From a virus: a DNA stretch of 64,000 nucleotides. Below, in pieces: positions 1,099-63,803 of the stretch. The stretch's first letter is position 1. The number at the start of each line of letters is the position of its first letter. The stretch spans positions 1 to 64,000 of the IMG/VR virus record IMGVR_UViG_3300047509_000037. One strand, written 5' to 3'. A program made the translations under genes and the position numbers. The notes under the pieces are model-generated. The model was not told where the DNA came from and did no database searches. It saw only the letters and a list, made by a program, of their open reading frames with translations.

Positions 1099-3093
1099 CT
1101 AGCCCATCAAGTCTGAGAGCGGGTTGTTGTTTGCCCACAACGCTTCTTCAGCATTGCGTCTGGCAACCGCGTCCGGTGCTTGGTCGGGGAACTCCAACTT
1201 CGTATTCTGTGCGTTGTACTTGTCGTATTTACCGAGTCCATGCACCATGTCGTAGTGTGACTTCGCCATCGGGTCGGGCGTGAAGTCCAGTGACGCTGCC
1301 TGAATCTTTGCTTCGGCGTCTGCGTAGCTGGAGAACGTGTTGACCATGATTGCGAGGGCATCGACGATGTCATCGTGCGTGCTCGACGCCGTGCCGAACT
1401 TCGACAACTCATCGTAGAGTTCGTCGAGGGACGGGCACGTGTTTACGAACTTCAGGCGGTCGTCTCCAAGGAATCGGAGAACCGGACCAGCCTTCATCTG
1501 CTTGGAGTTTTTCTTGTTGCCCTGTCCAAGCGGGATGAGTTCAACGGGACAACGGACTTTCAACTTGTCCATCTCGCGGTAGACTTCCCGCTGGATGTAC
1601 TTCATTGCTCCGGTGTCTTCAATGCAAACTCGTTTCGGCTTCCATTGGAGAGCCGTCGCCGCAATCATCGCGGGGAGCGTGTACTCGTCATAGCGACCGC
1701 GTTTCATGTCGATGACGTAGAACCGTCCGCCGTAAATCAGTGCGGTGATGATGACCGTGTAGTCCGCCCACGACTTCGTGCTGTAAGCGGTGTCCACGCA
1801 CGTCACAATCATCCCGGTGCCGGGAACCTCAACCGCGTTCACAGTTTTGCGAATCAGCAGTTCCCGTGGGAACTTGATGACGTGCATCTGTGTCGGGTCG
1901 TTGAGGTACTTGATTGCGAAGTACGGGTCGGTCTTTTTCAGATAGCGCAGGTTGGCATAGGTGAGAGAGTTCGGATTGTCGGGCACGTTAAACCACAGCG
2001 CCCAATCATTCTCGACCATCTCCTCCTCAATTTTGCCTTGCTTGACAGCGTCGAGGTTTGCCCACCATGCAGGACGGATGTAAATCTTCATGGGGAACTT
2101 CTCCCCATCTTCCTCATACGCCTGCTTGTTTTTGATGTCTTGACCGTAGGTATCTTCGGCGTCGTACCATGTTCCAATCTTGTCGTAGAACCCATACGGG
2201 TGCAACATAGCTTGGTTGATACTGACTTGCTTGTTGACCGCCTTCAGGCGTTCAACGGTGAGCGAGTTTTCGTTGGTCACCACGTCGTCCAGTTTCAGGA
2301 CGCATACGTGGAAGCCCGTCAAGGACTGCTCAATAGACGCGGAAAATATCGTCGGCTCTTTCCCTTTGATGGCGGTCGCGGGGGTTTGGAACTCGTTCGC
2401 TTTACCTTCATCAACCGGGATGCAGTGCTCCGCAAAGAGCACTTGGAACATTTTGTAGGTGCCGTCGTCGAACTGCTTCGGACGATAGCACTTCTTCGGG
2501 ACCATCAGGTCTTGGTACTCAGGCGTTCCTTCTTCGAGCGTGAAGTGCTCTTTGATTTCACCGATGAACTTGTCAGCCAGCTTCAACACGCCGGAGAGCA
2601 CGAGAATCGTGACTTCGGGGTACGTGATGATGTACTGGATGCTGTCTGCCATGTTCATCGTGGATTTGAAGCCGCCACGAGGGACCAAGAGAAGCCGTTG
2701 CTTCTCCTCAATGTATTGCATGGCGAACTCTTTGAAGTTCACCTTGGTTGGGTCTTTGCGGACGAAGAACTCGTTGCAGATTTCTTCGTGCGTGTTGTGA
2801 ATCGTACCGTCTTTCCAAACGTACTCGCCGTCGGACATTTCTTTGTAGCCGAGCAGCTTGCACAGGAAGAACAGATTAGTTTGCGCGAGGAACCGCGCAC
2901 GTGCGATGAGAGTTGGGTCAACGAGACCGAACTTCGCCCACACCTTCTTGCAGCGTTCGAGGCGCTCTTTGTTCATGCGCTTCAGGCTGGCTTTCGCCCG
3001 CTCGTCGAACTCCACGTCCGTCATGTCTCGGTGCTGGTAGTTCTTATCCAGCCGATGCTTCTCCACAAGGGATACGAGTGCGTCCACTTTCAC
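1099..3093 (-). CDS. terL: Terminase large subunit
   Basis: Walker A-like LLLVPRGGFKST, Walker B LKLDDVV, IGTWY coupling motif, RNase H-like nuclease (VDTAYS...ADYT, C-terminal HDDIVDA). Start moved to GTG 3093, which has a GGAGG RBS. Confidence 0.9.
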   Translation of the reverse strand: MKVDALVSLVEKHRLDKNYQHRDMTDVEFDERAKASLKRMNKERLERCKKVWAKFGLVDPTLIARARFLAQTNLFFLCKLLGYKEMSDGEYVWKDGTIHNTHEEICNEFFVRKDPTKVNFKEFAMQYIEEKQRLLLVPRGGFKSTMNMADSIQYIITYPEVTILVLSGVLKLADKFIGEIKEHFTLEEGTPEYQDLMVPKKCYRPKQFDDGTYKMFQVLFAEHCIPVDEGKANEFQTPATAIKGKEPTIFSASIEQSLTGFHVCVLKLDDVVTNENSLTVERLKAVNKQVSINQAMLHPYGFYDKIGTWYDAEDTYGQDIKNKQAYEEDGEKFPMKIYIRPAWWANLDAVKQGKIEEEMVENDWALWFNVPDNPNSLTYANLRYLKKTDPYFAIKYLNDPTQMHVIKFPRELLIRKTVNAVEVPGTGMIVTCVDTAYSTKSWADYTVIITALIYGGRFYVIDMKRGRYDEYTLPAMIAATALQWKPKRVCIEDTGAMKYIQREVYREMDKLKVRCPVELIPLGQGNKKNSKQMKAGPVLRFLGDDRLKFVNTCPSLDELYDELSKFGTASSTHDDIVDALAIMVNTFSSYADAEAKIQAASLDFTPDPMAKSHYDMVHGLGKYDKYNAQNTKLEFPDQAPDAVARRNAEEALWANNNPLSDLMG

Positions 3094-3529
3094 GGCGTTG
3101 CCTCCACAATTCAGCGTAGGCAACAATCTTTGCGAGAACGGTCGGAGAGTCTTTAGCGAAGCCGAGTATAACATTGCAGGAGTGGCAAAGAATGCCACGA
3201 ATACATTTCCCACAACTTCTCGAACTATCACAGCAAGCATGGTCGTGGTCAACGCACCATCCCCGCCCTCCGGGTTCTGTAGCCCCGCATGAAGCGCAAC
3301 ATCGACCTTGCGAATCGAATAGCGCATTCCACGCATCCGAGGTTAGCCCGTATTTCTCACGTCTACGTTTCTCAACGCATCGTTCGGGATTATCATCACG
3401 CCAACGCTTTGCGTAAGCAGCGTGCTCCTCTGGATGTTCTTTCGCACGCTTGCTAGAACGGGCGATAACTGCATCACGATTTCGGTCGTAATAACGACTA
3501 GCCGCGTCTTTCTGGTTCTGCGTTTGCAT
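3044..3529 (-). CDS. Endonuclease VII-family (HNH-like) endonuclease
   Basis: KYGLT...QGRCCASC...VDHDH...IRGILCHSCN motif; overlaps the terminase start. Confidence 0.85.
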   Translation of the reverse strand: MQTQNQKDAASRYYDRNRDAVIARSSKRAKEHPEEHAAYAKRWRDDNPERCVEKRRREKYGLTSDAWNALFDSQGRCCASCGATEPGGRGWCVDHDHACCDSSRSCGKCIRGILCHSCNVILGFAKDSPTVLAKIVAYAELWRQRRESGRTRIPCGEASAG

Positions 3530-3607
3530 ATTTCTCCTGATAAAAGAAATGGGCGATTGTTATCAGCAATCGCCCGCCAACGGGTAATTAATCCGTCAGG
3601 ATGTTCT

Positions 3608-4204
3608 TTACTTCTTATGCGACCAACCGTGCATCGCCACTGCGAGACGCCCCATCGCCGCCACATGCGGATTCGATGAATTTGCCGCTTCTTGTTTCTT
3701 CACCATCGGGATAGGTTCTCCCTCGGGAATACCTAGATGCCGATGCAAAGCCCCGCCATGCAATTTGTGCATGGAGCGGGCGAAGTGTTGTTTTTCGCTA
3801 GGACTGTGTTCCATAAAAGCATCCTCTACTGCGTTCGTGTCTTTGTCGTGATTGTCCGGGTTCTCGTGAGCCGGGACAACCTTCTCGCCCTCGTGGAGTT
3901 GATAGACTCCAGTCTTCGGGACGCTGTCACATCCGTCTTTGTACGAGCCGAGTGACTTCGTCCAATCACCGATGTCTTTCGGTGAGATAGGTTTCTCGCC
4001 TTTGATGGGCGCACGTTTGACGTGTTCCCAAGGCTGCATTGGTTCTTTCGCACGCGGCTTCGTATCGACAGGTGCCGTCGGCGTTCCGAGAGCGGCAGCG
4101 GTCATCGCCGCACGCTCGTGCAGTTCGTTCCCCAGACCGTCGGTCTCGGCGTTGCCCGCCTTGATTGCGTCTGAAGTTTGTTTTACCTTGTCGAGTATTC
4201 CCAC
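3608..4204 (-). CDS. Small virion-associated-type protein with VPKTGxxxLHxGEKVVPA motif
   Basis: DGCDSVPKTGVYQLHEGEKVVPA plus GALHRHLGIPEGEPIP; located in the morphogenesis operon. Confidence 0.65.
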   Translation of the reverse strand: MGILDKVKQTSDAIKAGNAETDGLGNELHERAAMTAAALGTPTAPVDTKPRAKEPMQPWEHVKRAPIKGEKPISPKDIGDWTKSLGSYKDGCDSVPKTGVYQLHEGEKVVPAHENPDNHDKDTNAVEDAFMEHSPSEKQHFARSMHKLHGGALHRHLGIPEGEPIPMVKKQEAANSSNPHVAAMGRLAVAMHGWSHKK

Positions 4205-4205
4205 G

Positions 4206-4811
4206 TTACGCTCCCGGCATTGGTGATGGAGCAGCCGTCATCGGTGCCGGAGCAGCCGCGCCTTCAGCGGGAGCCGCTTCGCCATCGTTCGGTGTGCCCG
4301 CGTGGTCTTCCATGTGATTGTGGAGTTCACTCATGTCCGACATGACGTGAGTCTCGTCGGGGTGATGCTCCGGGTGGTGATGTTTGTGGGTGATGATGTG
4401 CTTGCCGTTCGCGGACTTGGTGTGAACCATTTCCTTGATTTCTTTCTTCGGCTTTTTGTCACCCTTCGTAATTCCTGCAAACGGGTCCATTTTGTTTTCC
4501 TTTGCGGGGACGACTTTCTCCCCTTTGTGAAGCAGCGCGGGACCAGTCTTAGGTACGAAATCTGTTCCGTGCTTGTACGAACTGATGTGCGGCTCACGAA
4601 GTTGTTCGGGCGTCATCACATCGGAATGAATTGGCTTGGTCTTGACATCGACCTTTTGCACATCGCCTTTTGCGCCGCCCATGCGATACCACTTGCCTGA
4701 ACTGTTCGAGGGCAACTCAGTATCCCATCGGGGTGCGACGTTGTGCGGGTTGGGGAACACGGGACCGGGGAAATCGGCGGGTGCGCCCTTGCCCTTCGGT
4801 TTGTCAGCCAT
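4206..4811 (-). CDS. His-rich protein with HGTDFVPKTGPALLHKGEKVVPA motif
   Basis: Shares the motif with the neighbouring gene; tightly packed. Confidence 0.65.
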   Translation of the reverse strand: MADKPKGKGAPADFPGPVFPNPHNVAPRWDTELPSNSSGKWYRMGGAKGDVQKVDVKTKPIHSDVMTPEQLREPHISSYKHGTDFVPKTGPALLHKGEKVVPAKENKMDPFAGITKGDKKPKKEIKEMVHTKSANGKHIITHKHHHPEHHPDETHVMSDMSELHNHMEDHAGTPNDGEAAPAEGAAAPAPMTAAPSPMPGA

Positions 4812-19569: not shown

Positions 19570-19975
19570 CAACTAGTTGTGCCGAGCCTTTCTAGTAGGC
19601 ACATGCCGCGACGATTTACGCACGTATGAAGCGCAGGCTTCTGTTGTCGGACGCGGGTTCGACTCCCGCCGCCTCCACCAAGAGCACCAATAATTCCGAC
19701 GGCACCCTTCAGAGGGGACTCGCCGCGAGTATAGAGGGATTTCTGAATTGGTGTTCTTGACGGGGGCGTCATGGTTTCGACGGCGGCTGATGCAGGCGGG
19801 GACGTGCCGGGGTGCTGTGGCTCACCGACCGAAAGGTTAGAGCGCAAGAACGAGTTGCGCCAACGAGACATCAGAAAAAACACTTGCTAAGACTAACACT
19901 CTTGCAATGGGCGCTGCCGCTGGTCGGTAGTTCTCACGCGGCTTGGTCCCCACCGTGTCAAATAACGGGGACACT
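19570..19975 (+). ncRNA. ssrA: Circularly permuted (two-piece) tmRNA
   Basis: Acceptor piece ending GGACGCGGGTTCGACTCCCGCCGCCTCCACCA (19680) lies upstream of the conventional 5' end GGGGGCGTCATGGTTTCGAC (19762). G3:U70 pair present. Tag ORF 19886-19930 reads AKTNTLAMGAAAGR*. Outer boundaries approximate. Confidence 0.85.
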
Positions 19976-19994
19976 TTTTCTCAGGAGAACCAAC

Positions 19995-20261
19995 ATGAGC
20001 AAAGAATCGACATCCGTCAGCGTGGGCTTTCCGCTGGCAAGCATTCTCACCGTCATCTTCGTCATTGCGAAGTTGATGGGCACCGTGGCGTGGTCTTGGT
20101 GGTGGGTGTTCTCACCGCTGTGGATTAGCGCCCTTCTCGGCATCGGTGTCTTCGTCATCATCATCATCATGGTCGTGGCGGCAATCATCGCCGTCATCGC
20201 CGCAATTCTCGACAAGTTCACGGGCACACGCTGTTGTGGAACACCGGGGAAATCTCGGTGA
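19995..20261 (+). CDS. Small membrane protein (WSWWWVFSPLW type)
   Basis: AGGAG RBS; two hydrophobic helices; motif common in phage membrane proteins. Confidence 0.7.
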   Translation: MSKESTSVSVGFPLASILTVIFVIAKLMGTVAWSWWWVFSPLWISALLGIGVFVIIIIMVVAAIIAVIAAILDKFTGTRCCGTPGKSR

Positions 20262-27476: not shown

Positions 27477-28061
27477 GTCGAACGCCCGCAAGGGCGTCCA
27501 GCCGTTAGGCGGCTGCTGAGGAGACCAATATGGGACACGCATCAACAGCAATGCGAGTGAGAGAAGCGAAGGAACGCAAGCCCGAAGACTTCTGTGCCAA
27601 TCCACGCTGCCTGGCGCATTCGCACGGCGCAAGGTTTGAACCCTTGCAAGAAACATCCGGTCGCAACTGTCCCGGCGCTAGTGCCGACTCAGACCACGTT
27701 CGATGTGCTCAAGGTGCGCTAGACTTGACACGCGTGTTAGACTTTAACTCTGGAGGATGCCATGTACGGTTTTGAAGCGAAGCACATAGCACGGCGCATT
27801 GCGATGCACGACGACAAGTGGGCGAGGATGAGCGCATGATTGACCCTAACCATCTGTTCACCGTGCATCACACGTACACGGGGCTGGGCTGCGCCGTCTG
27901 CGGTCTCGCGCCGTGTGAGCACCCGTCGTTCGATTGGCTGGTCGAAGGCGAGAAACGAATCGACCCTCTAGACAGGAGCAATGCGCCATGCGTCGTCATC
28001 ACAGGCAGCACCATTCGCAAGTGGAAGAACCGCGACTGCCGCACGCGAGAGGTCGTGGAAC

Positions 28062-28448
28062 ATGTATAGGCATTTTCAGCGCAACAAAGCGGCGGCGAAG
28101 ATTCAGCAACGCGAGTGGGAGAGAGCCGCCAAGCGTGCTCAACGTGCGGAGGAGTTTATAAGTAAACCGTGCCCGTATTGCGGCACGATGATGACAATGG
28201 GAGACGACAATCCGAACACACTCACGAGTGAGAGCGAAGACCACATCGTGCCACGCTGCAAAGGCGGACGCGCTACCGTCGTCGTCTGTGTCGCGTGCAA
28301 TCGCGATAAGCATCACCTGGGCCTGGGCGAATATCGCGCCGTGCTCTGCGTTCGTCGGCGCACGTTTCACGTGTTCTACTTTGAGCGACAGGCGGCGCTG
28401 CATCTGCTCTGGAATGCGCTGGCATTGTTCAACAGGTTTGCGATATGA
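28062..28448 (+). CDS. HNH endonuclease
   Basis: CPYCG...EDHIVPRCKGG...CVACNRDK. Confidence 0.8.
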   Translation: MYRHFQRNKAAAKIQQREWERAAKRAQRAEEFISKPCPYCGTMMTMGDDNPNTLTSESEDHIVPRCKGGRATVVVCVACNRDKHHLGLGEYRAVLCVRRRTFHVFYFERQAALHLLWNALALFNRFAI

Positions 28449-28822
28449 ACACGCGTCGAAATTACTTCAGCGCATCAAAGCGGGCACGCATCGCAGGCGA
28501 TGAACTCGCGGCTGCTATCGCGGCATCTTCACGTGAATGGCACACCTATATGATTCTCGCAGAAAAGACGAAGCTGGTGAAGATTGGACACGCACGCGAT
28601 GTTGCGAAACGTCTTGAGGGTTTGCGTGCTGTCAATGCAGACTCACTCCGGCTGCTATGCGTGGTGCCTGAGACCGAGAAGGAATTGCACAAGCGGTTCG
28701 CGCATCTCCGCACGCACGGCGAATGGTTCAAATATCACAACGATATTCGGTGGTTCGTCGAGCACCGTTCCTCACGGGAAAATCACCAAGAACTACCTGC
28801 CCAAAGCGAATTATCCTCGTAA
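28445..28822 (+). CDS. GIY-YIG (T5orf172/MUG113-like) nuclease-domain protein
   Basis: TYMI...VKIG...KRL...EKELHKRF...GEWF. Confidence 0.8.
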   Translation: MNTRRNYFSASKRARIAGDELAAAIAASSREWHTYMILAEKTKLVKIGHARDVAKRLEGLRAVNADSLRLLCVVPETEKELHKRFAHLRTHGEWFKYHNDIRWFVEHRSSRENHQELPAQSELSS

Positions 28823-29534: not shown

Positions 29535-30458
29535 ATGGCATCACTCGCACCCGCATTCAATCAGACAGTCAACGTCACGAAGGCAACCCAAGAATGCGTG
29601 TACATCACGACGCACTATCACATGGGCATCGGTCGGATGCGACAGATTAGCCTCGACACGAAGAACGTCACGACCGCTGACGCGTCGGAACTGCGTCACC
29701 AGAAGCGGCTGATTGATTCGCCTGAACTCGACGCCATCCGTTCGCAGGATGGATTCATGCAGCGCCACATCGACAGCGTCACCTGTGCTTGCGACAAGAG
29801 CACGCGGTTCCTGCCGAAGCCCGAACTGGCGAAGCTGTACAAGGCGCTGGTCGCATACCAGACCATCCGGCGTCCGAAACTCGTGGACGCATTCATGGCG
29901 AAGTATGAAGCCCTCGAAGCTGCGGACTTCACGCCACTGGCTGAAGTGCTGGGCGACAAGTTTGACCGTGCCGATTATCCGAAGGCTGACACGGTTCGCG
30001 CTGGCTTCTACATGACGTTCCGCATTCGTCCGGTCGGTAGCGTGAACCTTGAAGGCTGCCCTGACTTCGTCATTGCGATGGAGTTGGAGAAAGAACTGAG
30101 CGAACGCACTGCCGCAATCGAAGCGTGGAAGGACACGCTGCGGTTGGCTGGTCTCGCTGCCGTAGAGACCCTGGCGAAGGCACTGTCGCCTGACCCGGAT
30201 GGCAAGCGCAAGAAACTCTACGAGAGCAACGTCGAGAACCTGAAGCAATACCTCGACACATTCACCAACCGCGACCTCGCCTCTGACATCGAATATCAGA
30301 AGACGGTCGTCGAACCGCTGAAAGCTATGATGCGCGGCGTCTCAATCGAAAAGTTGCGAGAGAGCGACAACCTGAAAGTTGAAATCGCTGCCAAGCTGGA
30401 AGGCATCAAGAAGAATGCCAGCCGGCTCGTGCAAGTCACTGGTCGTAAAATTCGCTAG
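29535..30458 (+). CDS. DUF3150-like protein with C-terminal GRKIR
   Basis: KRLIDS..., LGDKFDRADYP...VRAGF, GKRKKLYESNVENL; ends VTGRKIR*. Confidence 0.65.
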   Translation: MASLAPAFNQTVNVTKATQECVYITTHYHMGIGRMRQISLDTKNVTTADASELRHQKRLIDSPELDAIRSQDGFMQRHIDSVTCACDKSTRFLPKPELAKLYKALVAYQTIRRPKLVDAFMAKYEALEAADFTPLAEVLGDKFDRADYPKADTVRAGFYMTFRIRPVGSVNLEGCPDFVIAMELEKELSERTAAIEAWKDTLRLAGLAAVETLAKALSPDPDGKRKKLYESNVENLKQYLDTFTNRDLASDIEYQKTVVEPLKAMMRGVSIEKLRESDNLKVEIAAKLEGIKKNASRLVQVTGRKIR

Positions 30459-30888: not shown

Positions 30889-32451
30889 ATGTCTAAGACA
30901 TTCATTCAGATGTTCACGGATGCCCGCGCAGTCTCGACACCGAACGTCGCAATCAAGACGTTCGACAACGCGTCCACCATCCAAGGTATTCGCGCTTCAC
31001 TCGGCGGCGAACTCGCTGAGTTAACGCCGTTCGTATCGTGGGATGGTATCCACGGTCTCAAAGGTCTGAACGACTCCGGCGTCGAAGCGGTCGATGCGAT
31101 GTGCAAGAAAGCTGACGGCGGCGCTGGGGTTGACCGCGCTGCCACGGTTGACTTGACCATCTGTCTCGCCACGCTTGAAGAAGCGGACGAGGATGTCATC
31201 GCCTTCATTCACAACCCGCAATTGTTTTGGGACAAAGACCCGCGTGCCATTCAGGGCATGTGGAATCTGCGTGACCCCAACAAGGCGGCTGGCAACATGC
31301 TGGTGCTCTTGCTTGGTCCTGGCGACGAACTGCCTGCGGAACTTCAGCAGGACACGCTGGTGCTCGAAGAACCGTTGCCCACGCGTGACCAGCTTGCGAA
31401 AATCGTGACCGACACCTACGGTTACTTCGCACAGAAATATCCCGCGTGCAAAAAGGGACCGTCGGCTGAAGTGCTCAAGGCTGCGGTCGATGCACTCATC
31501 GGTCTGCCAGCGTTCCCGGCTGACCAGGCTGTTGCGATGTGCTTGGACAAAGCCACGGGCATTCTCGACATCGAAACCCTGTGGGCACGCAAGCGCAGCA
31601 TCGTGAGCCAGAACCCCGGACTCAGCTACCACGCTGGGAAAGAGAAGCTGGCTGACATGTACGGATGCGCCCCGATTCAGGCATTCGGCAAGGCTTTCAT
31701 GGGCGGCAAGTTCGCTCCCACACTCATCGTCCGCATGGATGAAATCGAAAAGCAATTCGCTGGCGCTGGCACGGATAGCAGCGGCACGAAAGGCAACCTG
31801 CTTGGTGAGTGGCTGACGTGGGTGAACGACAAGCGCATCGTGTGCTCGTTGTTCGTCGGCGTTCCGGGTTCGTCCAAGTCGCACAGCGTTTACTGCATCG
31901 GCGGCGAGTACGGTCGTCCGGTCATCAACTACAGCATCCCCGGCATGGAGCATGAGCACGTCGGCATGTCTTCACGTCACCAGCGCACAGCGCACCGCGT
32001 GCTGGACGCAATCAGCGACGAGAAAATCTGGCTCATCGCTACTGCGAACAACATCGACGGCTTGCCGCCGGAGCTAATCTCCCGGTTCCAAGTCGGCGGC
32101 ATTTTCTTCTTCGATGCTCCTGACTCCGATGAGAAGCAGGGCATTATGAAGCTGAAGATGAAAGCCTACGGTCTCGACGCAAACCAGGACGTTCCGAACA
32201 TGGACGACTGGACTGGTCGTGACGTTGACAACTGCGCTCGTAAGGCGCTCACGCTGGGTATCGACTTGGACAACGCGTCGAAGTTCATCGTGCCACTGCT
32301 CCAGTCACACGGGGCGCAGATGGATGCACTGCGGCAATCCGCCAGCGGTCGCTTCCTCGCAGCCAACAAAGAAGGCGTGTACAAATACAGTCCTCCTGTT
32401 AAGAAACCTATTGTCACCGTCACAAACCCTGAGGGTAGGAAAGTCAGGTAG
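30889..32451 (+). CDS. Ycf46-like AAA+ ATPase with permuted core and C-terminal GRKVR
   Basis: Walker B IVRMDEIEK precedes Walker A-like GVPGSSKS; sensor-1 IATANN, LPPELISRF, IFFFDAP, WTGRDV. Confidence 0.85.
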   Translation: MSKTFIQMFTDARAVSTPNVAIKTFDNASTIQGIRASLGGELAELTPFVSWDGIHGLKGLNDSGVEAVDAMCKKADGGAGVDRAATVDLTICLATLEEADEDVIAFIHNPQLFWDKDPRAIQGMWNLRDPNKAAGNMLVLLLGPGDELPAELQQDTLVLEEPLPTRDQLAKIVTDTYGYFAQKYPACKKGPSAEVLKAAVDALIGLPAFPADQAVAMCLDKATGILDIETLWARKRSIVSQNPGLSYHAGKEKLADMYGCAPIQAFGKAFMGGKFAPTLIVRMDEIEKQFAGAGTDSSGTKGNLLGEWLTWVNDKRIVCSLFVGVPGSSKSHSVYCIGGEYGRPVINYSIPGMEHEHVGMSSRHQRTAHRVLDAISDEKIWLIATANNIDGLPPELISRFQVGGIFFFDAPDSDEKQGIMKLKMKAYGLDANQDVPNMDDWTGRDVDNCARKALTLGIDLDNASKFIVPLLQSHGAQMDALRQSASGRFLAANKEGVYKYSPPVKKPIVTVTNPEGRKVR

Positions 32452-32453
32452 GT

Positions 32454-32834
32454 ATGCGCGATATTAAGAAACTGAAAGCGAAATGGTATCGCCATGCTCA
32501 CTCCATCGGTGGAAAGTATCGAAACACTCGGGCGAGTGCTAAGAGACGAGGACTCCAATTCACTCTTACACTCGCGGAGTTTAGGGCTATCCTAAAGAAG
32601 CCGTGTGCCTACGGTGATGCCATCCACAGTCTGAAGTTACACGTCGGCATCGACCGGAAGGACAACCAGCGCGGGTACGTTCGAGGTAATTGCGTGGCGT
32701 GTTGTGGAAAGCACAATCACATCAAAGGCACGTGGGCGTCGTATCGCCAGATGCGTTCTCTGATGCAAGAGTGCAAGAACAAAGCATTCACCACTTGCCA
32801 AGACAACGTGGGCGGGCGTAAAATTCCATCTTAG
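32454..32834 (+). CDS. HNH-like endonuclease
   Basis: AKRRGLQFTLT...GIDRKDNQRGYVRGNCVACC..HN.IK. Confidence 0.75.
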   Translation: MRDIKKLKAKWYRHAHSIGGKYRNTRASAKRRGLQFTLTLAEFRAILKKPCAYGDAIHSLKLHVGIDRKDNQRGYVRGNCVACCGKHNHIKGTWASYRQMRSLMQECKNKAFTTCQDNVGGRKIPS

Positions 32835-32844
32835 GAGCATTCAC

Positions 32845-33258
32845 GTGAAAGCATTCCCGAAGACAGAGCGAAAGATTCTGACGGTCACCATCGACGAGAA
32901 CGGTGACATGTTATATCTAAAAACTGATTCGTGCGATGTGCTTCTCGAACTCGGTGAGACAGTCACGAAGCGTGCGAGTCACGTTGAGCCTGTGAGCGTG
33001 CCCCTGCGGTACGCGTTCAGGTTGCTCCGCATGTTCGGAGATAAGACACGCGTGGCAGAGTGGACGCGTCACTGGCAATGCGAATGGCTGGTGGACACGA
33101 GACCCGTCGGTGGTCCGGTGCTCACGTATGCCGATGTCGAGCCGCGCTACAAAAACTTGAGTGCGCCAATCGGCAAGCGCATCGCAACATGGCGCAATCG
33201 CCAGGACGCGATTGACGCCGAAATTATTTTCTTGAACGAATGGTTCCTCACGCGGTAG
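32845..33258 (+). CDS. Conserved 'RASHVEP' protein of AAA/DUF1257/DUF2997 modules
   Basis: KRASHVEP...W.VD..PVGGPVL...RQDAIDAE..FL. Confidence 0.65.
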   Translation: MKAFPKTERKILTVTIDENGDMLYLKTDSCDVLLELGETVTKRASHVEPVSVPLRYAFRLLRMFGDKTRVAEWTRHWQCEWLVDTRPVGGPVLTYADVEPRYKNLSAPIGKRIATWRNRQDAIDAEIIFLNEWFLTR

Positions 33259-33285: not shown

Positions 33286-33720
33286 ATGAGCGAGTATCGC
33301 AAGAGCACGACGAACTGCAAAGACCGGGAAGTGCTGATTGGCGCACTGATTGAGATGGGCTACAAGCGTGAGCACATCGAAATCCACGAGCAAGCCCAGC
33401 AGCTAATCGACTTCCAAGGGCACCCCACACGCTACATCGACCCGACAGGCGACAAGGCGAACGTCATCGTTCGTCGCAGGCATGTGGGCGGCGCTGCGAA
33501 CGACCTTGGGTTCAAGCTGAATCCAGAGACGGGCACCTACGACGCAATCATCAGCCGCTACGACAGCGGCAAGCACAATGCGAAGTGGCTTGCTGGTCTG
33601 AAGACGAACTACGCTGAGAAGGGCTTGGCGAAGACCCTGAAGAAACAGGGCTTCAAATATCTCGGCAAGGAAATCGTCAACGGCAAGATTCAAATCAAGT
33701 ACATGGACATGAAGGCGTAG
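33286..33720 (+). CDS. DUF1257 (Ycf35-like) protein
   Basis: MSEY..., LIGALIEMGY, ANDLGF...GTYDAIISRYD, KKQGF. Confidence 0.75.
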   Translation: MSEYRKSTTNCKDREVLIGALIEMGYKREHIEIHEQAQQLIDFQGHPTRYIDPTGDKANVIVRRRHVGGAANDLGFKLNPETGTYDAIISRYDSGKHNAKWLAGLKTNYAEKGLAKTLKKQGFKYLGKEIVNGKIQIKYMDMKA

Positions 33721-33755: not shown

Positions 33756-33950
33756 ATGGCGAAAATTCTGACAGCGACGATTGACCCCGCGACCGGAGAG
33801 ATGGAAGTTGACCTCTCCGGCTACAAGGGCAAAGGTTGCCACGCGGTTCAAGAGGCAATCAGCAAAGCGATGGGCAGCACGACCATCGAAGACAAACGCA
33901 AGCGCGAGTACAACGACGTGGAAGTGAGCAAGGTCTGCGTCCGGTCGTGA
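33756..33950 (+). CDS. DUF2997-like small protein
   Basis: IDP.TGEMEVDLSGYKGKGC...MG...KREY. Confidence 0.7.
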   Translation: MAKILTATIDPATGEMEVDLSGYKGKGCHAVQEAISKAMGSTTIEDKRKREYNDVEVSKVCVRS

Positions 33951-47479: not shown

Positions 47480-48226
47480 ATGGAGAAAGCTGCAATCGTC
47501 GGAGACGCGGACGTATCTCGCGCAACACACGTCCGCCGCCGCATCACCAATCTGGTCAAGGCAGCCAACACGAGCGACTTTGACCTTGCCGAATTGTTCC
47601 ACGAGTCAAAGAAGAACCAGTACCCCGCGATGTGGGGCTTCGAGTCCTTCTCTGCTTACGGCAAGGCTCTGGCGAAGGACTACAACTTCAAGTGGACGAA
47701 GGTCTACTACCTGACTCGCATTGCTGAGAACATGGAAGCCGCGAAGCTGGAGCGTTCGCAGTACGAACCCGTTGGCAAGACCAAGCTGCGAATGATTTCC
47801 CGGCTGAAGCCTGACACCGAGTTCAACGGCGTCTCCGTCTCTATCCTGATTCGGGAACTGACGCTGAAGGCTGGGCAGATGTCACCAGACGAAGTCCAGT
47901 ACGAGGTCGATAAGATTCTCGGACTGACGGAAGATGAGTCGATGTCATGGCTCAACATCCGTGTGAAGAAGATGGCGAAGGACAACGTCATCATGCCGTC
48001 CATCGCTCTCGCAAAGAAACACATCGGGAGCGTTGGGCAGGACGAAGAAGGACAGTCGCAGGACGCAAGTGAAGGTCGCTGTCTCGAACTCATCTGTGCG
48101 AACTTCCTCGCGGACCCGAACTACAACAACGAGCAACCGCCGGATACCGCCGCGAAGATTCAAGCAGCCGCCGATGCAACCGAGGCGGCGCAAGAGGAAA
48201 ACGAACAACCAACCAACGACGAATAA
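47480..48226 (+). CDS. Hypothetical DNA-binding-type protein
   Basis: WGFESFSAY, VGKTKLRMI, RCLELICANFLA. Confidence 0.65.
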   Translation: MEKAAIVGDADVSRATHVRRRITNLVKAANTSDFDLAELFHESKKNQYPAMWGFESFSAYGKALAKDYNFKWTKVYYLTRIAENMEAAKLERSQYEPVGKTKLRMISRLKPDTEFNGVSVSILIRELTLKAGQMSPDEVQYEVDKILGLTEDESMSWLNIRVKKMAKDNVIMPSIALAKKHIGSVGQDEEGQSQDASEGRCLELICANFLADPNYNNEQPPDTAAKIQAAADATEAAQEENEQPTNDE

Positions 48227-48239
48227 CTGGAGGGTGCCA

Positions 48240-49280
48240 ATGCCATTCCGAAAGCTGGACATCACCCGCAAGACTGGTGAGGCAACCGCTCTGGCAACGA
48301 AACTCGAAGGACTCATCGTGGGACAGCGGGCACCTAAAGACGCTCTCCTGTCGGTCGTAGACCGCATCCAAAGTGGGTTCTATGACAAGACGAGACCCGT
48401 CGGCATCTTCCTCTTTCTCGGACCCACCGGGACGGGAAAGACCGGAGTAGCCGAGGCGTTCACGATGGGTCTGTTCAATAACCCGAAGATGTTGATGAAG
48501 GTGGATTGCGCAGAGTTCCAGCACTCGCACGAGATTGCGAAGCTAGTTGGCAGCCCTCCCGGTTATCTGGGACACCGCGAGACGCATCCGTACTTCACCA
48601 ACAATTCGCTCAAGGCGCATCGCACCGATGCCTTTCCATTCACGCCGATTCTGTTCGACGAGATTGAGAAGGCAAGCGACTCACTCTGGAATCTCCTGCT
48701 GGGTATTCTGGATAAGGGCACGCTCACGACGGGCGCCAACGAAGTCGTGGACATGAAGCCCACAATCATTTTGATGACCAGCAACGTCGGGGCGTCGGAG
48801 ATGTCGGAAGACAAGTCTCTGGGCTTCGTCGGCAAGACCACAGTTGATGATGCCAAGCTGGAGTCAATCGCTCTGGCGGCGGCACGGCGGAAGTTCTCGC
48901 CGGAGTTCCTGAACCGCATCGACTACATTTTGAACTTCAAGACTCTGACTGAAGACGAACTCAAACAGGTTCTCGCGCTTCAGTTGCAATTGCTTCAAGA
49001 CCGCATCGTCGTTGACTCGAAGGTGCTCTTTGAACTGCGTGTCTCCAGCCGGGGACTCGCGCAATTGCTGGTGGATGGTTATGACCGTCGCTACAACGCA
49101 CGGCATCTCAAGCGGACGATAGACAAACACATCTCCGCTCCGCTAACGAGTCTTGTCGCCACGGGGCAGATAATGAACGAAGACGTTGTCATCGTTGACT
49201 ACCTCGAAGGCGACTGGCGATATGTGGCAGTACCGAGGGCGAATGCTCCCCAAGGCGATTTCTCAGGCAGTCTACCGTAG
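48240..49280 (+). CDS. Single-domain Clp/Hsp100 ATPase (ClpA/B/C D2-like) with LGF loop
   Basis: IVGQ, RPVGIFLFLGPTGTGKT, GSPPGYLG pore loop, LFDEIEKA, MTSNVG, SLGF, FSPEFLNRID, YNARHL. Confidence 0.9.
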   Translation: MPFRKLDITRKTGEATALATKLEGLIVGQRAPKDALLSVVDRIQSGFYDKTRPVGIFLFLGPTGTGKTGVAEAFTMGLFNNPKMLMKVDCAEFQHSHEIAKLVGSPPGYLGHRETHPYFTNNSLKAHRTDAFPFTPILFDEIEKASDSLWNLLLGILDKGTLTTGANEVVDMKPTIILMTSNVGASEMSEDKSLGFVGKTTVDDAKLESIALAAARRKFSPEFLNRIDYILNFKTLTEDELKQVLALQLQLLQDRIVVDSKVLFELRVSSRGLAQLLVDGYDRRYNARHLKRTIDKHISAPLTSLVATGQIMNEDVVIVDYLEGDWRYVAVPRANAPQGDFSGSLP

Positions 49281-59391: not shown

Positions 59392-59478
59392 GCGGTTGTG
59401 GCGGAACTGGTAGACGCACAGCGTTGAGGTCGCTGTGGGAGCAATCCCGTGAAGGTTCGAGTCCTTTCAACCGCACCA
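59392..59478 (+). tRNA. tRNA-Leu(GAG)
   Basis: Canonical class II cloverleaf; CAGCG-TTGAGGT-CGCTG; encoded CCA. Confidence 0.92.
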
Positions 59479-62244: not shown

Positions 62245-62319
62245 TGGTGGACAGTACAGGGGTTGAACCTGCAACCTCCTGCGTGCAAGGCAGGCGCTCT
62301 CCCATTGAGCTAACCGCCC
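62245..62319 (-). tRNA. tRNA-Ala(TGC)
   Basis: Cloverleaf with G3:U70; CCTGC-CTTGCAC-GCAGG; encoded CCA. Confidence 0.9.
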
Positions 62320-62675: not shown

Positions 62676-62753
62676 TGGTAGCGGGAGTTGGATTTGAACC
62701 AACGTACTCTGGATTATGAGACCAGCGAGGGAACCGGACTCCTCTATCCCGCC
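62676..62753 (-). tRNA. tRNA with CAT anticodon (elongator Met, or Ile2)
   Basis: GGCGGGA/TCCCGCT-A-CCA; loop CT-CAT-AA; GTTGG-TTCAAAT-CCAAC. Confidence 0.85.
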
Positions 62754-63682: not shown

Positions 63683-63726
63683 GCTTCTCCTGTGGTGCCA
63701 GTTTGTCCGAACTAGGAAACGGATTG

Positions 63727-63803
63727 GGTGGCGAGTGGAAGTCGAATCCACCAGAGGTCAGGTTCACAGCCTGCCATAACATTCCCAGAGTTATCATCGC
63801 CAC
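63727..63803 (-). tRNA. tRNA-His(GTG)-like, atypical D-arm
   Basis: GTGGCGA/TCGCCAC acceptor + C73; loop CT-GTG-AA; GTGGA-TTCGACT-TCCAC; D-stem ATAAC/GTTAT. Confidence 0.65.

Follow-up and report, generated by a model that had tools for sequence, protein, structure and literature searches.

A phage Ycf46-like AAA+ ATPase with Walker B ahead of Walker A: evidence for an internal transposition within the core

Can a natural AAA+ ATPase be built with its core segments in another order? The connectivity from β1 to β5 and the succession Walker A–Walker B–sensor 1 count as invariant hallmarks of AAA+ proteins, in whose classic form Walker A is followed by pore loop 1, Walker B and sensor-1 (β1-α1-β2-α2-β3-α3-β4). 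The question is raised by one gene in IMG/VR virus record IMGVR_UViG_3300047509_000037. The stretch of DNA analysed here (the window) comprises 64,000 nucleotides, positions 1 to 64,000 of this 96,151-bp record, which CheckV rates as complete, and the gene is an intact open reading frame (ORF) for a 520-residue protein, P0001, to which all residue numbers refer. An earlier note, made from the letters of the window alone, had proposed that Walker B and its helix precede Walker A in this protein, through an internal segment swap and not a simple circular permutation. Based on the evidence set out below, we consider it very probable that P0001, from a soil phage, is a Ycf46-like AAA+ ATPase built of two tiers, of which the C-terminal one is block-transposed, and that its nucleotide site is normal in space.

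Read from its N-terminal side, the C-terminal domain of P0001 presents Walker B, α3, Walker A, the pore loop, α2, the sensor-1 residue N387 and the arginine finger R399, so that Walker B and α3 precede Walker A and the canonical AAA chain order is absent. The segment TLIVRMDEIEK begins at nucleotide (nt) 31720 (T278), FVGVPGSSKS at nt 31852 (F322, with G324 at nt 31858) and IATANN at nt 32035, while EHVGMS occupies residues 356–361; these motifs, as well as the GRKVR tail at the C terminus, were all found where the earlier note had placed them, in one intact ORF. For convenience, the stretch with β3/Walker B, pore loop 2 and α3 (residues 276–316) is referred to as block B and the one with β1, Walker A, α1, β2, pore loop 1 and α2 (residues 317–378) as block A.

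Comparison with proteins of known structure gave the same order. In a single-sequence search of the PDB, residues 321–380 of P0001 matched AFG2 665–724 and residues 374–467 matched AFG2 759–857, leaving AFG2 725–758, about 34 residues that comprise Walker B and its helix, with no counterpart between P0001 380 and 374. A profile of 150 relatives matched Cdc48/p97 with E values of about 1e-35, every match being in out-of-order pieces: against the D2 domain of 6chs, profile positions 300–356 aligned with target residues 529–585, positions 256–295 with 584–626, and positions 341–446 with 612–723. The match of block A to the Walker A-to-pore-loop stretch of p97/Cdc48 scored 31–33 bits per domain in the profile search, and N387 and R399 fell on the equivalent p97/Cdc48 positions. 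The Pfam AAA model (PF00004) reached its cut-off of 21.2 bits on P0001 (27.5 bits) with two fragments only, the best of which joined residues 370–402 to profile positions 90–125, and distant swapped members were likewise fragmentary (e.g. P0270, residues 330–381 to profile positions 1–52). Normal-order relatives, in contrast, were matched over profile positions 1–130 in one stretch, with 87–98 bits vs. 27–50 bits in swapped proteins. Matches to AAA models were thus split and out of order, as the earlier note had predicted, and the reversed order of Walker B and Walker A is real and not a chance motif match.

The nature of the rearrangement was resolved by comparison with normal-order relatives. 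A scan of bacterial genomes provided three such proteins, from a Desulfobacterales metagenome-assembled genome (L085, nt 3275–4693), from L086 (nt 3275–4684) and from Paenibacillus glucanolyticus (L087, nt 2810–4465), which share the N-terminal domain and specific motifs of the swapped family and show the order Walker A, pore loop, Walker B, sensor 1. A native family hidden Markov model (HMM), built from 335 swapped sequences, matched each of them in four pieces with the Walker B piece (HMM 312–349) out of order; the N-domain scored 52–84 bits in the three proteins, and the pieces in L085 scored 84 (N-domain), 62 (block A), 30 (Walker B) and 60 bits (the fourth). As an in silico control, the alignment columns of residues 276–316 and 317–378 were exchanged and the HMM rebuilt. 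The rebuilt model gave a single match that begins in the N-domain and extends into the lid, with 275 vs. 239 bits for the native model in L085, 264 vs. 228 bits in L086 and 213 vs. 176 bits in L087. Normal-order proteins fetched from viral contigs behaved alike: four pieces became one in 79 of 79, the scores reaching 424 bits. Since one continuous alignment results from the column exchange, exactly two adjacent blocks are transposed; and since the ends of the domain are unchanged, its flanks (HMM 59–305 and 410–517) being colinear with the normal-order relatives, the rearrangement is a transposition inside the domain and no circular permutation, as had been claimed. Homology to Ycf46-like proteins is accordingly of whole length only after block exchange, the native chain aligning in four pieces. 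The link to Ycf46 is itself borne out by the N-terminal domain and the operon that normal-order Ycf46-like proteins share with P0001.

The swapped order characterizes a large family. A word-indexed search returned at least 298 full-length colinear homologues (clustered at 90%) with 55–78% identity, and an exhaustive search returned 3,965 representative clusters (50% identity level) at E≤1e-3; 888 of these were found at E≤1e-30, giving a family of at least 888 clusters, and the best 150 matches of the exhaustive search were nearly all a single colinear stretch. We collected 335 distinct swapped-order relatives, including those of 80 viral loci and reaching down to about 32% identity with P0001. 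All 335, close and distant, have the swapped order, so the objection that close homologues might all be canonical fails. The catalytic residues are nearly invariant in this set: E285, N387 and R399 are each found in all members (335/335), position 284 is D in 328 members and E in the other 7, and K330, S/T331 and G324 are each found in 334 and G327 in 333. In the lid, W441 is present in 331. The serine that precedes K330 in the P-loop, singled out in the earlier note, is indeed present in P0001 but is a variant of the clade and not a family trait, as 134 of the 335 have S at position 329, 123 have G and 72 have A. At the C terminus R517 is present in 312 members, and a tail of the R[KR]x[RK] type in 159 of 335 vs. 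only 5 of 79 normal-order viral ATPases.

In the ESM Atlas, clusters of the swapped family are mostly viral, and their structure-based neighbours are named ycf46 (template modelling score 0.71–0.76). The ATPase matches phrog_8638 in PHROGs, annotated as 'unknown function', and no family was found for it in NCBIfam. The only isolated phage with the swapped form in INPHARED is Tunturiibacter phage Tunturi_3 (gp103, PP885686.1), and 133 phage records there match a normal-order query, the best of them (e.g. Mycobacterium phage Corndog gp96) being colinear over 93%. One further acidic pair, D377–E378 (ISDEK, before the sensor-1 strand), was considered as an in-place Walker B and rejected, since the family consensus shows no conservation at either position.

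AlphaFold2, run with the 150-sequence alignment, returned a confident model of P0001 (predicted local distance difference test score, pLDDT, 96.3; predicted template modelling score, pTM, 0.91). Residues 1–240 form an α/β domain with a lid and without a P-loop, and the C-terminal domain contains exactly five strands (279–283, 318–324, 345–348, 380–386 and 405–408), the helices that link them and a helical lid, the moved segment being modelled as a strand and helix inside the domain with pLDDT of about 98. By VIA-align the whole model matches the D1–D2 tiers of Cdc48/p97/Drg1 (Z 17, about 400 residues), and residues ~246–498 match p97 D2 (Z 15.5, root-mean-square deviation 2.8 Å, 200 residues aligned), together with Vps4, spastin and FIGNL1 (Z 15–16.5 for p97 D2, Vps4 and spastin). 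About 50 residues of this region were left unaligned, which is to be expected of a sequential aligner if one block is out of order. The AlphaFold check proposed in the earlier note therefore yields an AAA fold whose five strands include the moved one.

Where the moved segment lies was also addressed by coevolution, using mean-field direct coupling analysis (DCA) on the 335 sequences (effective number of sequences 235). Between the moved strand (277–286) and the sensor-1 strand (379–387), 9 of 90 pairs fall in the top 1%, with 0.9 expected, and the couplings are in parallel register (I280–I380/W381, V281–L382, D284–T385, I286–A384). According to L279–S376 (z 12) and T278–D377, the moved strand begins where α2 ends, as in a normal AAA domain, and helix 300–314 is coupled with pore loop 1 (8 of 120 pairs) and with α2 (12 of 285). 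As positive controls, the β1–β5 and β1–β4 pairings were recovered. Measured against the AAA sheet order 5-1-4-3-2, the model supplies five strands and the lid, and DCA supplies the contacts 3–4, 1–4 and 1–5, with 3–2 weak. By coevolution, then, the partner of the moved strand is the sensor-1 strand, and P0001 appears, from model and couplings, to keep the normal AAA fold and active site. Taken as a whole, its elements seem to retain their canonical neighbours, and what is new is confined to three loop connections, with linkers of 3–7 residues in the model.

Several points weigh against this interpretation. To the edge strand, β2, the moved strand is only weakly coupled (A276–R343, 1.47), with 0 of 60 pairs in the top 1%. 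The position of D284/E285 beside the P-loop is deduced from secondary structure, fold matches and coevolution. The alignment used for DCA is of the same kind as that given to AlphaFold2, so the two lines are not fully independent, and DCA is blind to whether the block is placed within its own chain or swapped into another. Pore loop 1 is devoid of the usual aromatic residue (H-V-G in P0001, L-V-G in the consensus), which makes a threading unfoldase mechanism uncertain. Finally, ATPase activity and ring formation are predictions only, and the duplication-loss route discussed below is inferred.

Keeping these points in mind, we propose the following arrangement. The N-terminal tier would be a degenerate AAA-like domain without a P-loop and the C-terminal tier a classic AAA domain in which block B has come to stand before block A. 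The elements would keep their usual places in space, the moved strand lying beside that of sensor-1 and beginning close to where α2 ends, so that D284/E285 would still face K330/S331 of the P-loop with N387 of sensor-1 between them, and R399 would serve as arginine finger toward the neighbouring subunit of a ring. The changed connections would be α0–β3, α3–β1 and α2–β4, each leading to a strand one or two positions from its normal target. The protein, expressed along with early/replication genes, would most likely act as an ATP-driven ring remodelling machine on a protein or nucleoprotein target, together with the products of DUF1257, DUF2997 and DUF3150 genes, during early infection.

In the N-terminal tier (residues 1–240), R128 (in WNLRD) and G205 are invariant in all 335 sequences and P18, D26, W51–D52 and Q122 nearly so, which suggests a conserved function or interface other than nucleotide binding.

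The proposal that the swapped clade has lost its motor function, and that the protein is a nucleotide-regulated scaffold or switch for DUF1257, DUF2997 and DUF3150 proteins and no translocating unfoldase, is a possibility to be taken seriously, even if we hold it to be rather unlikely. It draws on the non-aromatic pore loop 1 (H357-V-G, L-V-G in the consensus) and on the N-terminal tier having no P-loop. All hydrolysis residues are kept, however, and normal-order relatives are equally non-aromatic at this loop (S-L-V-G in L085), so the feature is a trait of the whole Ycf46-like group and not of the swap; its presence in both forms at the same time leaves room for a switch or scaffold role.

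A different placement of the moved unit can also be envisaged, in which residues 276–316 are domain-swapped into the sheet of the neighbouring protomer and the permutation works only in an obligate oligomer. AAA proteins are oligomeric, and coevolution does not separate contacts within a chain from those between chains. Against this, the linkers from helix 300–314 to strand 318–324 and from α2 to strand 380–386 are about three residues long, which favours an intramolecular fit, and the monomer was modelled confidently with no partner present (pLDDT 96, pTM 0.91); we consider such an exchange between protomers improbable. A slightly smaller chance still is given to the DEIEK segment being a relic or linker, e.g. 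the leftover of a partial duplication, in a C-terminal domain that would be four-stranded, devoid of Walker B and probably inactive. This would agree with Pfam detecting AAA fragments only and with the absence of a Walker B between pore loop 1 and sensor-1, but a relic would hardly show an invariant E285 and near-invariant D284 in sequences of such divergence, couplings of the segment with α2 and, in parallel register, with the sensor-1 strand, a strand and helix modelled with such confidence inside the domain, or 30 bits against the Walker B block of a normal-order protein, let alone a single alignment upon exchange.

An error of assembly or annotation (a misjoined contig, or a local inversion or duplication in one record) is conceivable for a metagenome-derived record but can practically be dismissed, given the intact ORF, the same order in 335 distinct sequences from many samples, the colinearity of Tunturi_3 gp103 from an isolated phage over 99% of P0001, and short contigs from four other independent studies that bridge all junctions and thereby rule out the misassembly that the earlier note had named as a risk. 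These contigs span the junction at nt 31714 (X3 31644–31828, X6 31500–31903, X8 31537–31738), that at nt 31837 (X6 31500–31903, X3 31804–31970, X8 31783–31947) and that at nt 32023 (X2 31905–32170, with no differences, and X3 31944–32102).

The origin of the transposition was sought in the phylogeny of both forms. In a FastTree phylogeny of 55 swapped sequences, whose blocks were restored to normal order for alignment, and 70 viral plus 9 bacterial normal-order sequences, all swapped sequences fell on one side of a branch with support of 100, implying one change of state. The same split was obtained with IQ-TREE on 372 colinear columns from which both blocks were left out (Shimodaira–Hasegawa-like approximate likelihood ratio test, 100). 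Taking the Paenibacillus sequence as the root places the swapped clade ten nodes deep within normal-order phage proteins; 26 of these form its sister group, and its stem is long (0.74). The root is assumed, and the nesting holds if it lies among normal-order sequences. Since, to our knowledge, every other AAA+ protein is in normal order, the swap is the derived state. The phylogeny thus supports a single origin of the swap within a normal-order phage lineage, if the root is among the normal-order sequences. The textbook route to such an exchange is a tandem duplication to A-B-A-B, from which the outer A and the outer B are then lost. It was probably taken here, inside a normal-order phage Ycf46-like lineage, and purifying selection would since have maintained the new order across a large clade. 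No A-B-A-B intermediate was present among the collected sequences, a limited set that says little on this point.

The positions of these elements and of the genes next to the ATPase are compiled in Table 1.

Table 1. Elements of the ATPase gene and its neighbouring genes in the window (nucleotide positions; residues of P0001).
Feature	Position	Strand	Basis
Whole gene, two-tier Ycf46-like AAA ATPase (P0001)	30889..32451	+	Intact ORF, full-length colinear homologues, AlphaFold2 model
N-terminal D1-like domain, degenerate AAA-like α/β plus lid, no P-loop (residues ~1–240)	30889..31608	+	Five strands plus helices in model; homologous to N-domain of normal-order relatives
Moved block B (276–316)	31714..31836	+	Out-of-order alignment to Walker B and helix of p97/Cdc48 and normal-order relatives
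Parts of block B: Walker B strand 279–283, D284–E285, pore-loop-2-like loop 287–299, helix 300–314			
Walker B acidic pair D284–E285	31738..31743	+	Conservation; couplings D284–T385, I286–A384
Block A (317–378)	31837..32022	+	Aligns to Walker A-to-pore-loop stretch of p97/Cdc48 and normal-order relatives
Parts of block A: strand 318–324, Walker A, helix 330–340, strand 345–348, pore loop 1 (HVG, 357–359), helix 358–376			
Walker A P-loop G324-V-P-G327-S-S-K330-S331	31858..31881	+	Conservation
Sensor-1 strand (379–387), ending in N387	32023..32049	+	Conservation; strand 380–386 in model; coevolution with moved strand
Putative arginine finger R399 (SRF; consensus RRF)	32083..32085	+	Invariant; aligns to Arg-finger region of p97/Cdc48
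Helical lid subdomain (~410–500) with WTGRD motif	32116..32388	+	Helices 413–485; aligns to lid of p97 D2, Vps4, spastin
C-terminal GRKVR tail	32434..32448	+	R517 conservation
DUF3150-family gene	29535..30458	+	Homologues near swapped and normal-order loci; PF11348 matches in family
HNH endonuclease gene directly after ATPase, outside conserved module	32454..32834	+	phrog_3118 HNH endonuclease, E 2e-15
137-residue module gene	32845..33258	+	Recurs in related loci
DUF1257 (Ycf35-like) module gene	33286..33720	+	PF06868, 29.4 bits, above cut-off
DUF2997-like module gene	33756..33950	+	PF11211, 16.4 bits, below cut-off; family HMM

The ATPase gene is accompanied by a conserved module on the same strand, and the neighbourhood typical of Ycf46-like proteins (DUF1257/Ycf35 with DUF2997) is present in the window. 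Partner genes were counted at 80 swapped-form and 79 normal-order viral loci, DUF3150 being scored within 5 kb. A DUF3150-family partner was found at 75 swapped-form and 58 normal-order loci, DUF1257 at 53 and 66, DUF2997 (by family HMM) at 49 and 67, and the 137-residue protein, which has no match in Pfam or PHROGs, at 42 and 24, respectively. In bacteria, DUF1257 and DUF2997 genes follow the normal-order ATPase in L085, L086 and L087, and a DUF3150 gene follows it in L085 and L086. Assignment to DUF3150 is based on 9 of 37 family members that match PF11348 (best E 1.5e-11).

The DUF3150 gene of the window lies upstream of the ATPase, while it is downstream in nearly all of the 75 related loci that have it, and the HNH gene right after the ATPase stop codon has a homologue in only 1 of the 80 related loci. 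Both the ATPase (GRKVR) and the DUF3150 protein (GRKIR, nt 30441–30455) end in a basic tail of the R-K-x-R type, and an arginine near the C terminus is invariant in the DUF3150 family; judged by sequence, this shared tail may be a docking or sorting motif. The DUF3150 protein was modelled with pLDDT 89. Foldseek returned nothing for this model at E≤0.001, VIA-align matched residues ~192–305 to generic four-helix bundles only (Z at most 9.4, within the uninformative range for helical bundles), and a profile search of the PDB gave only a weak TRAX-like match (E 0.09).

PADLOC contains no defence-system match for the module partners, and for P0001 returned only a weak match to TRIP13 in the N-domain (E 9e-4); its generic IetA AAA models matched the L085 protein (E 6e-23) and did not match P0001. 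In L085, nt 1389–3008, beside the normal-order module, encode a product that by eye looks like a DNA methyltransferase, which could hint at a defence-island context of the bacterial versions. In the literature on Ycf46, DUF1257/DUF2997 and DUF3150 we found nothing on what the module does.

Around the ATPase the window carries replication and early genes of the phage, namely those for a primase, DNA polymerase, ligase, exonuclease, helicase and UvsX-like recombinase, as well as for an RNA ligase, a Lon-like protease and several HNH endonucleases. The Lon-like ATP-dependent protease (nt 48033–49280; phrog_4871, E 7e-74) is the second AAA-type match and has the normal motif order (PF00004, 21.4 bits at nt 48411–48782). 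A small ORF at nt 28445–28822 with a T5orf172/MUG113 domain (GIY-YIG-like; PF10544, 31 bits; PF13455, 35 bits) adjoins an HNH gene at nt 27981–28448, in an early region rich in genes of homing-endonuclease type. ARAGORN detected a permuted transfer-messenger RNA-like gene at nt 19588–20021 (+), between the polymerase region and downstream genes, with the tag peptide AKTNTLAMGAAAGR; four tRNA genes lie at nt 59392–59478, 62245–62319, 62676–62753 and 63726–63803.

A search of the literature on permuted or rearranged AAA+ and P-loop cores found no description of this swap. We consider it likely that the family represents the first documented natural rewiring of an AAA+/ASCE core, by an internal transposition that was fixed once and has long been kept in a large phage clade with catalytic residues and partner genes retained. 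Should this be true, and should the protein form an active ring ATPase, an AAA+ core could fold, assemble and pass through its hydrolysis cycle without the usual connectivity. Swapped and normal-order proteins would then provide a natural matched pair within the same operon for studying how the nucleotide site is coupled to the pore loop: these sister proteins have the same partners and differ mainly in connectivity, which makes folding, ring assembly and communication between ATP site and pore loop addressable. There is a practical aspect as well, as domain models of the PF00004 type rely on motif order; a large family with a transposed core exposes a gap in annotation, and members of the swapped clade will often stay 'hypothetical'. 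The abundant phage version, moreover, offers a tractable entry to the Ycf46/DUF1257/DUF2997/DUF3150 module of phages, bacteria and plastids.

Among known systems, the closest are the normal-order Ycf46-like ATPases, which have in common with P0001 the two-tier architecture with a homologous N-terminal domain, the motifs DEIEK, SLVG-SE (pore loop), ATxN..LPPE and IVP..S.., and the partner genes DUF1257, DUF2997 and DUF3150, which lie downstream in these relatives. They differ, Corndog gp96 included, in that their chain has the canonical order and Pfam AAA matches them in one piece, whereas blocks 276–316 and 317–378 are transposed in P0001. Tunturi_3 gp103, annotated 'ATPase' in a 97.6-kb genome, is 37.8% identical to P0001 and has the same DUF1257, DUF2997, 137-residue protein and DUF3150 genes downstream; it is a distant relative from a record with a different (Acidobacteriota) host, whose annotation is silent on the rearrangement. 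The type II classic AAA proteins p97/VCP, Cdc48, NVL, Rix7 and Drg1/Afg2 are the best structural match to both tiers and the best match by profile, sharing Walker A and B, the sensor-1 asparagine, the arginine finger and the lid. Unlike them, P0001 has no N-terminal substrate or adaptor domain, no P-loop in the first tier and no aromatic residue in the pore loop, its core connectivity is rewired, and identity is only 11–16%. A changed order of catalytic motifs has its precedent among natural P-loop NTPases in the circularly permuted GTPases YlqF/YawG, whose motifs run G4-G5-G1-G2-G3 with the three-dimensional site kept. These belong to the kinase-GTPase division and are true circular permutations of the whole G domain with new termini, which P0001 is not: in this member of the ASCE/AAA+ division the domain ends are kept and two internal blocks are exchanged, so that the topological changes in P-loop NTPases, of which few are known, now include a non-circular permutation. 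Residues, fold and operon clearly place P0001 among the AAA+ ATPases of the Ycf46 group, and just as clearly it departs from the chain order by which that family is defined.

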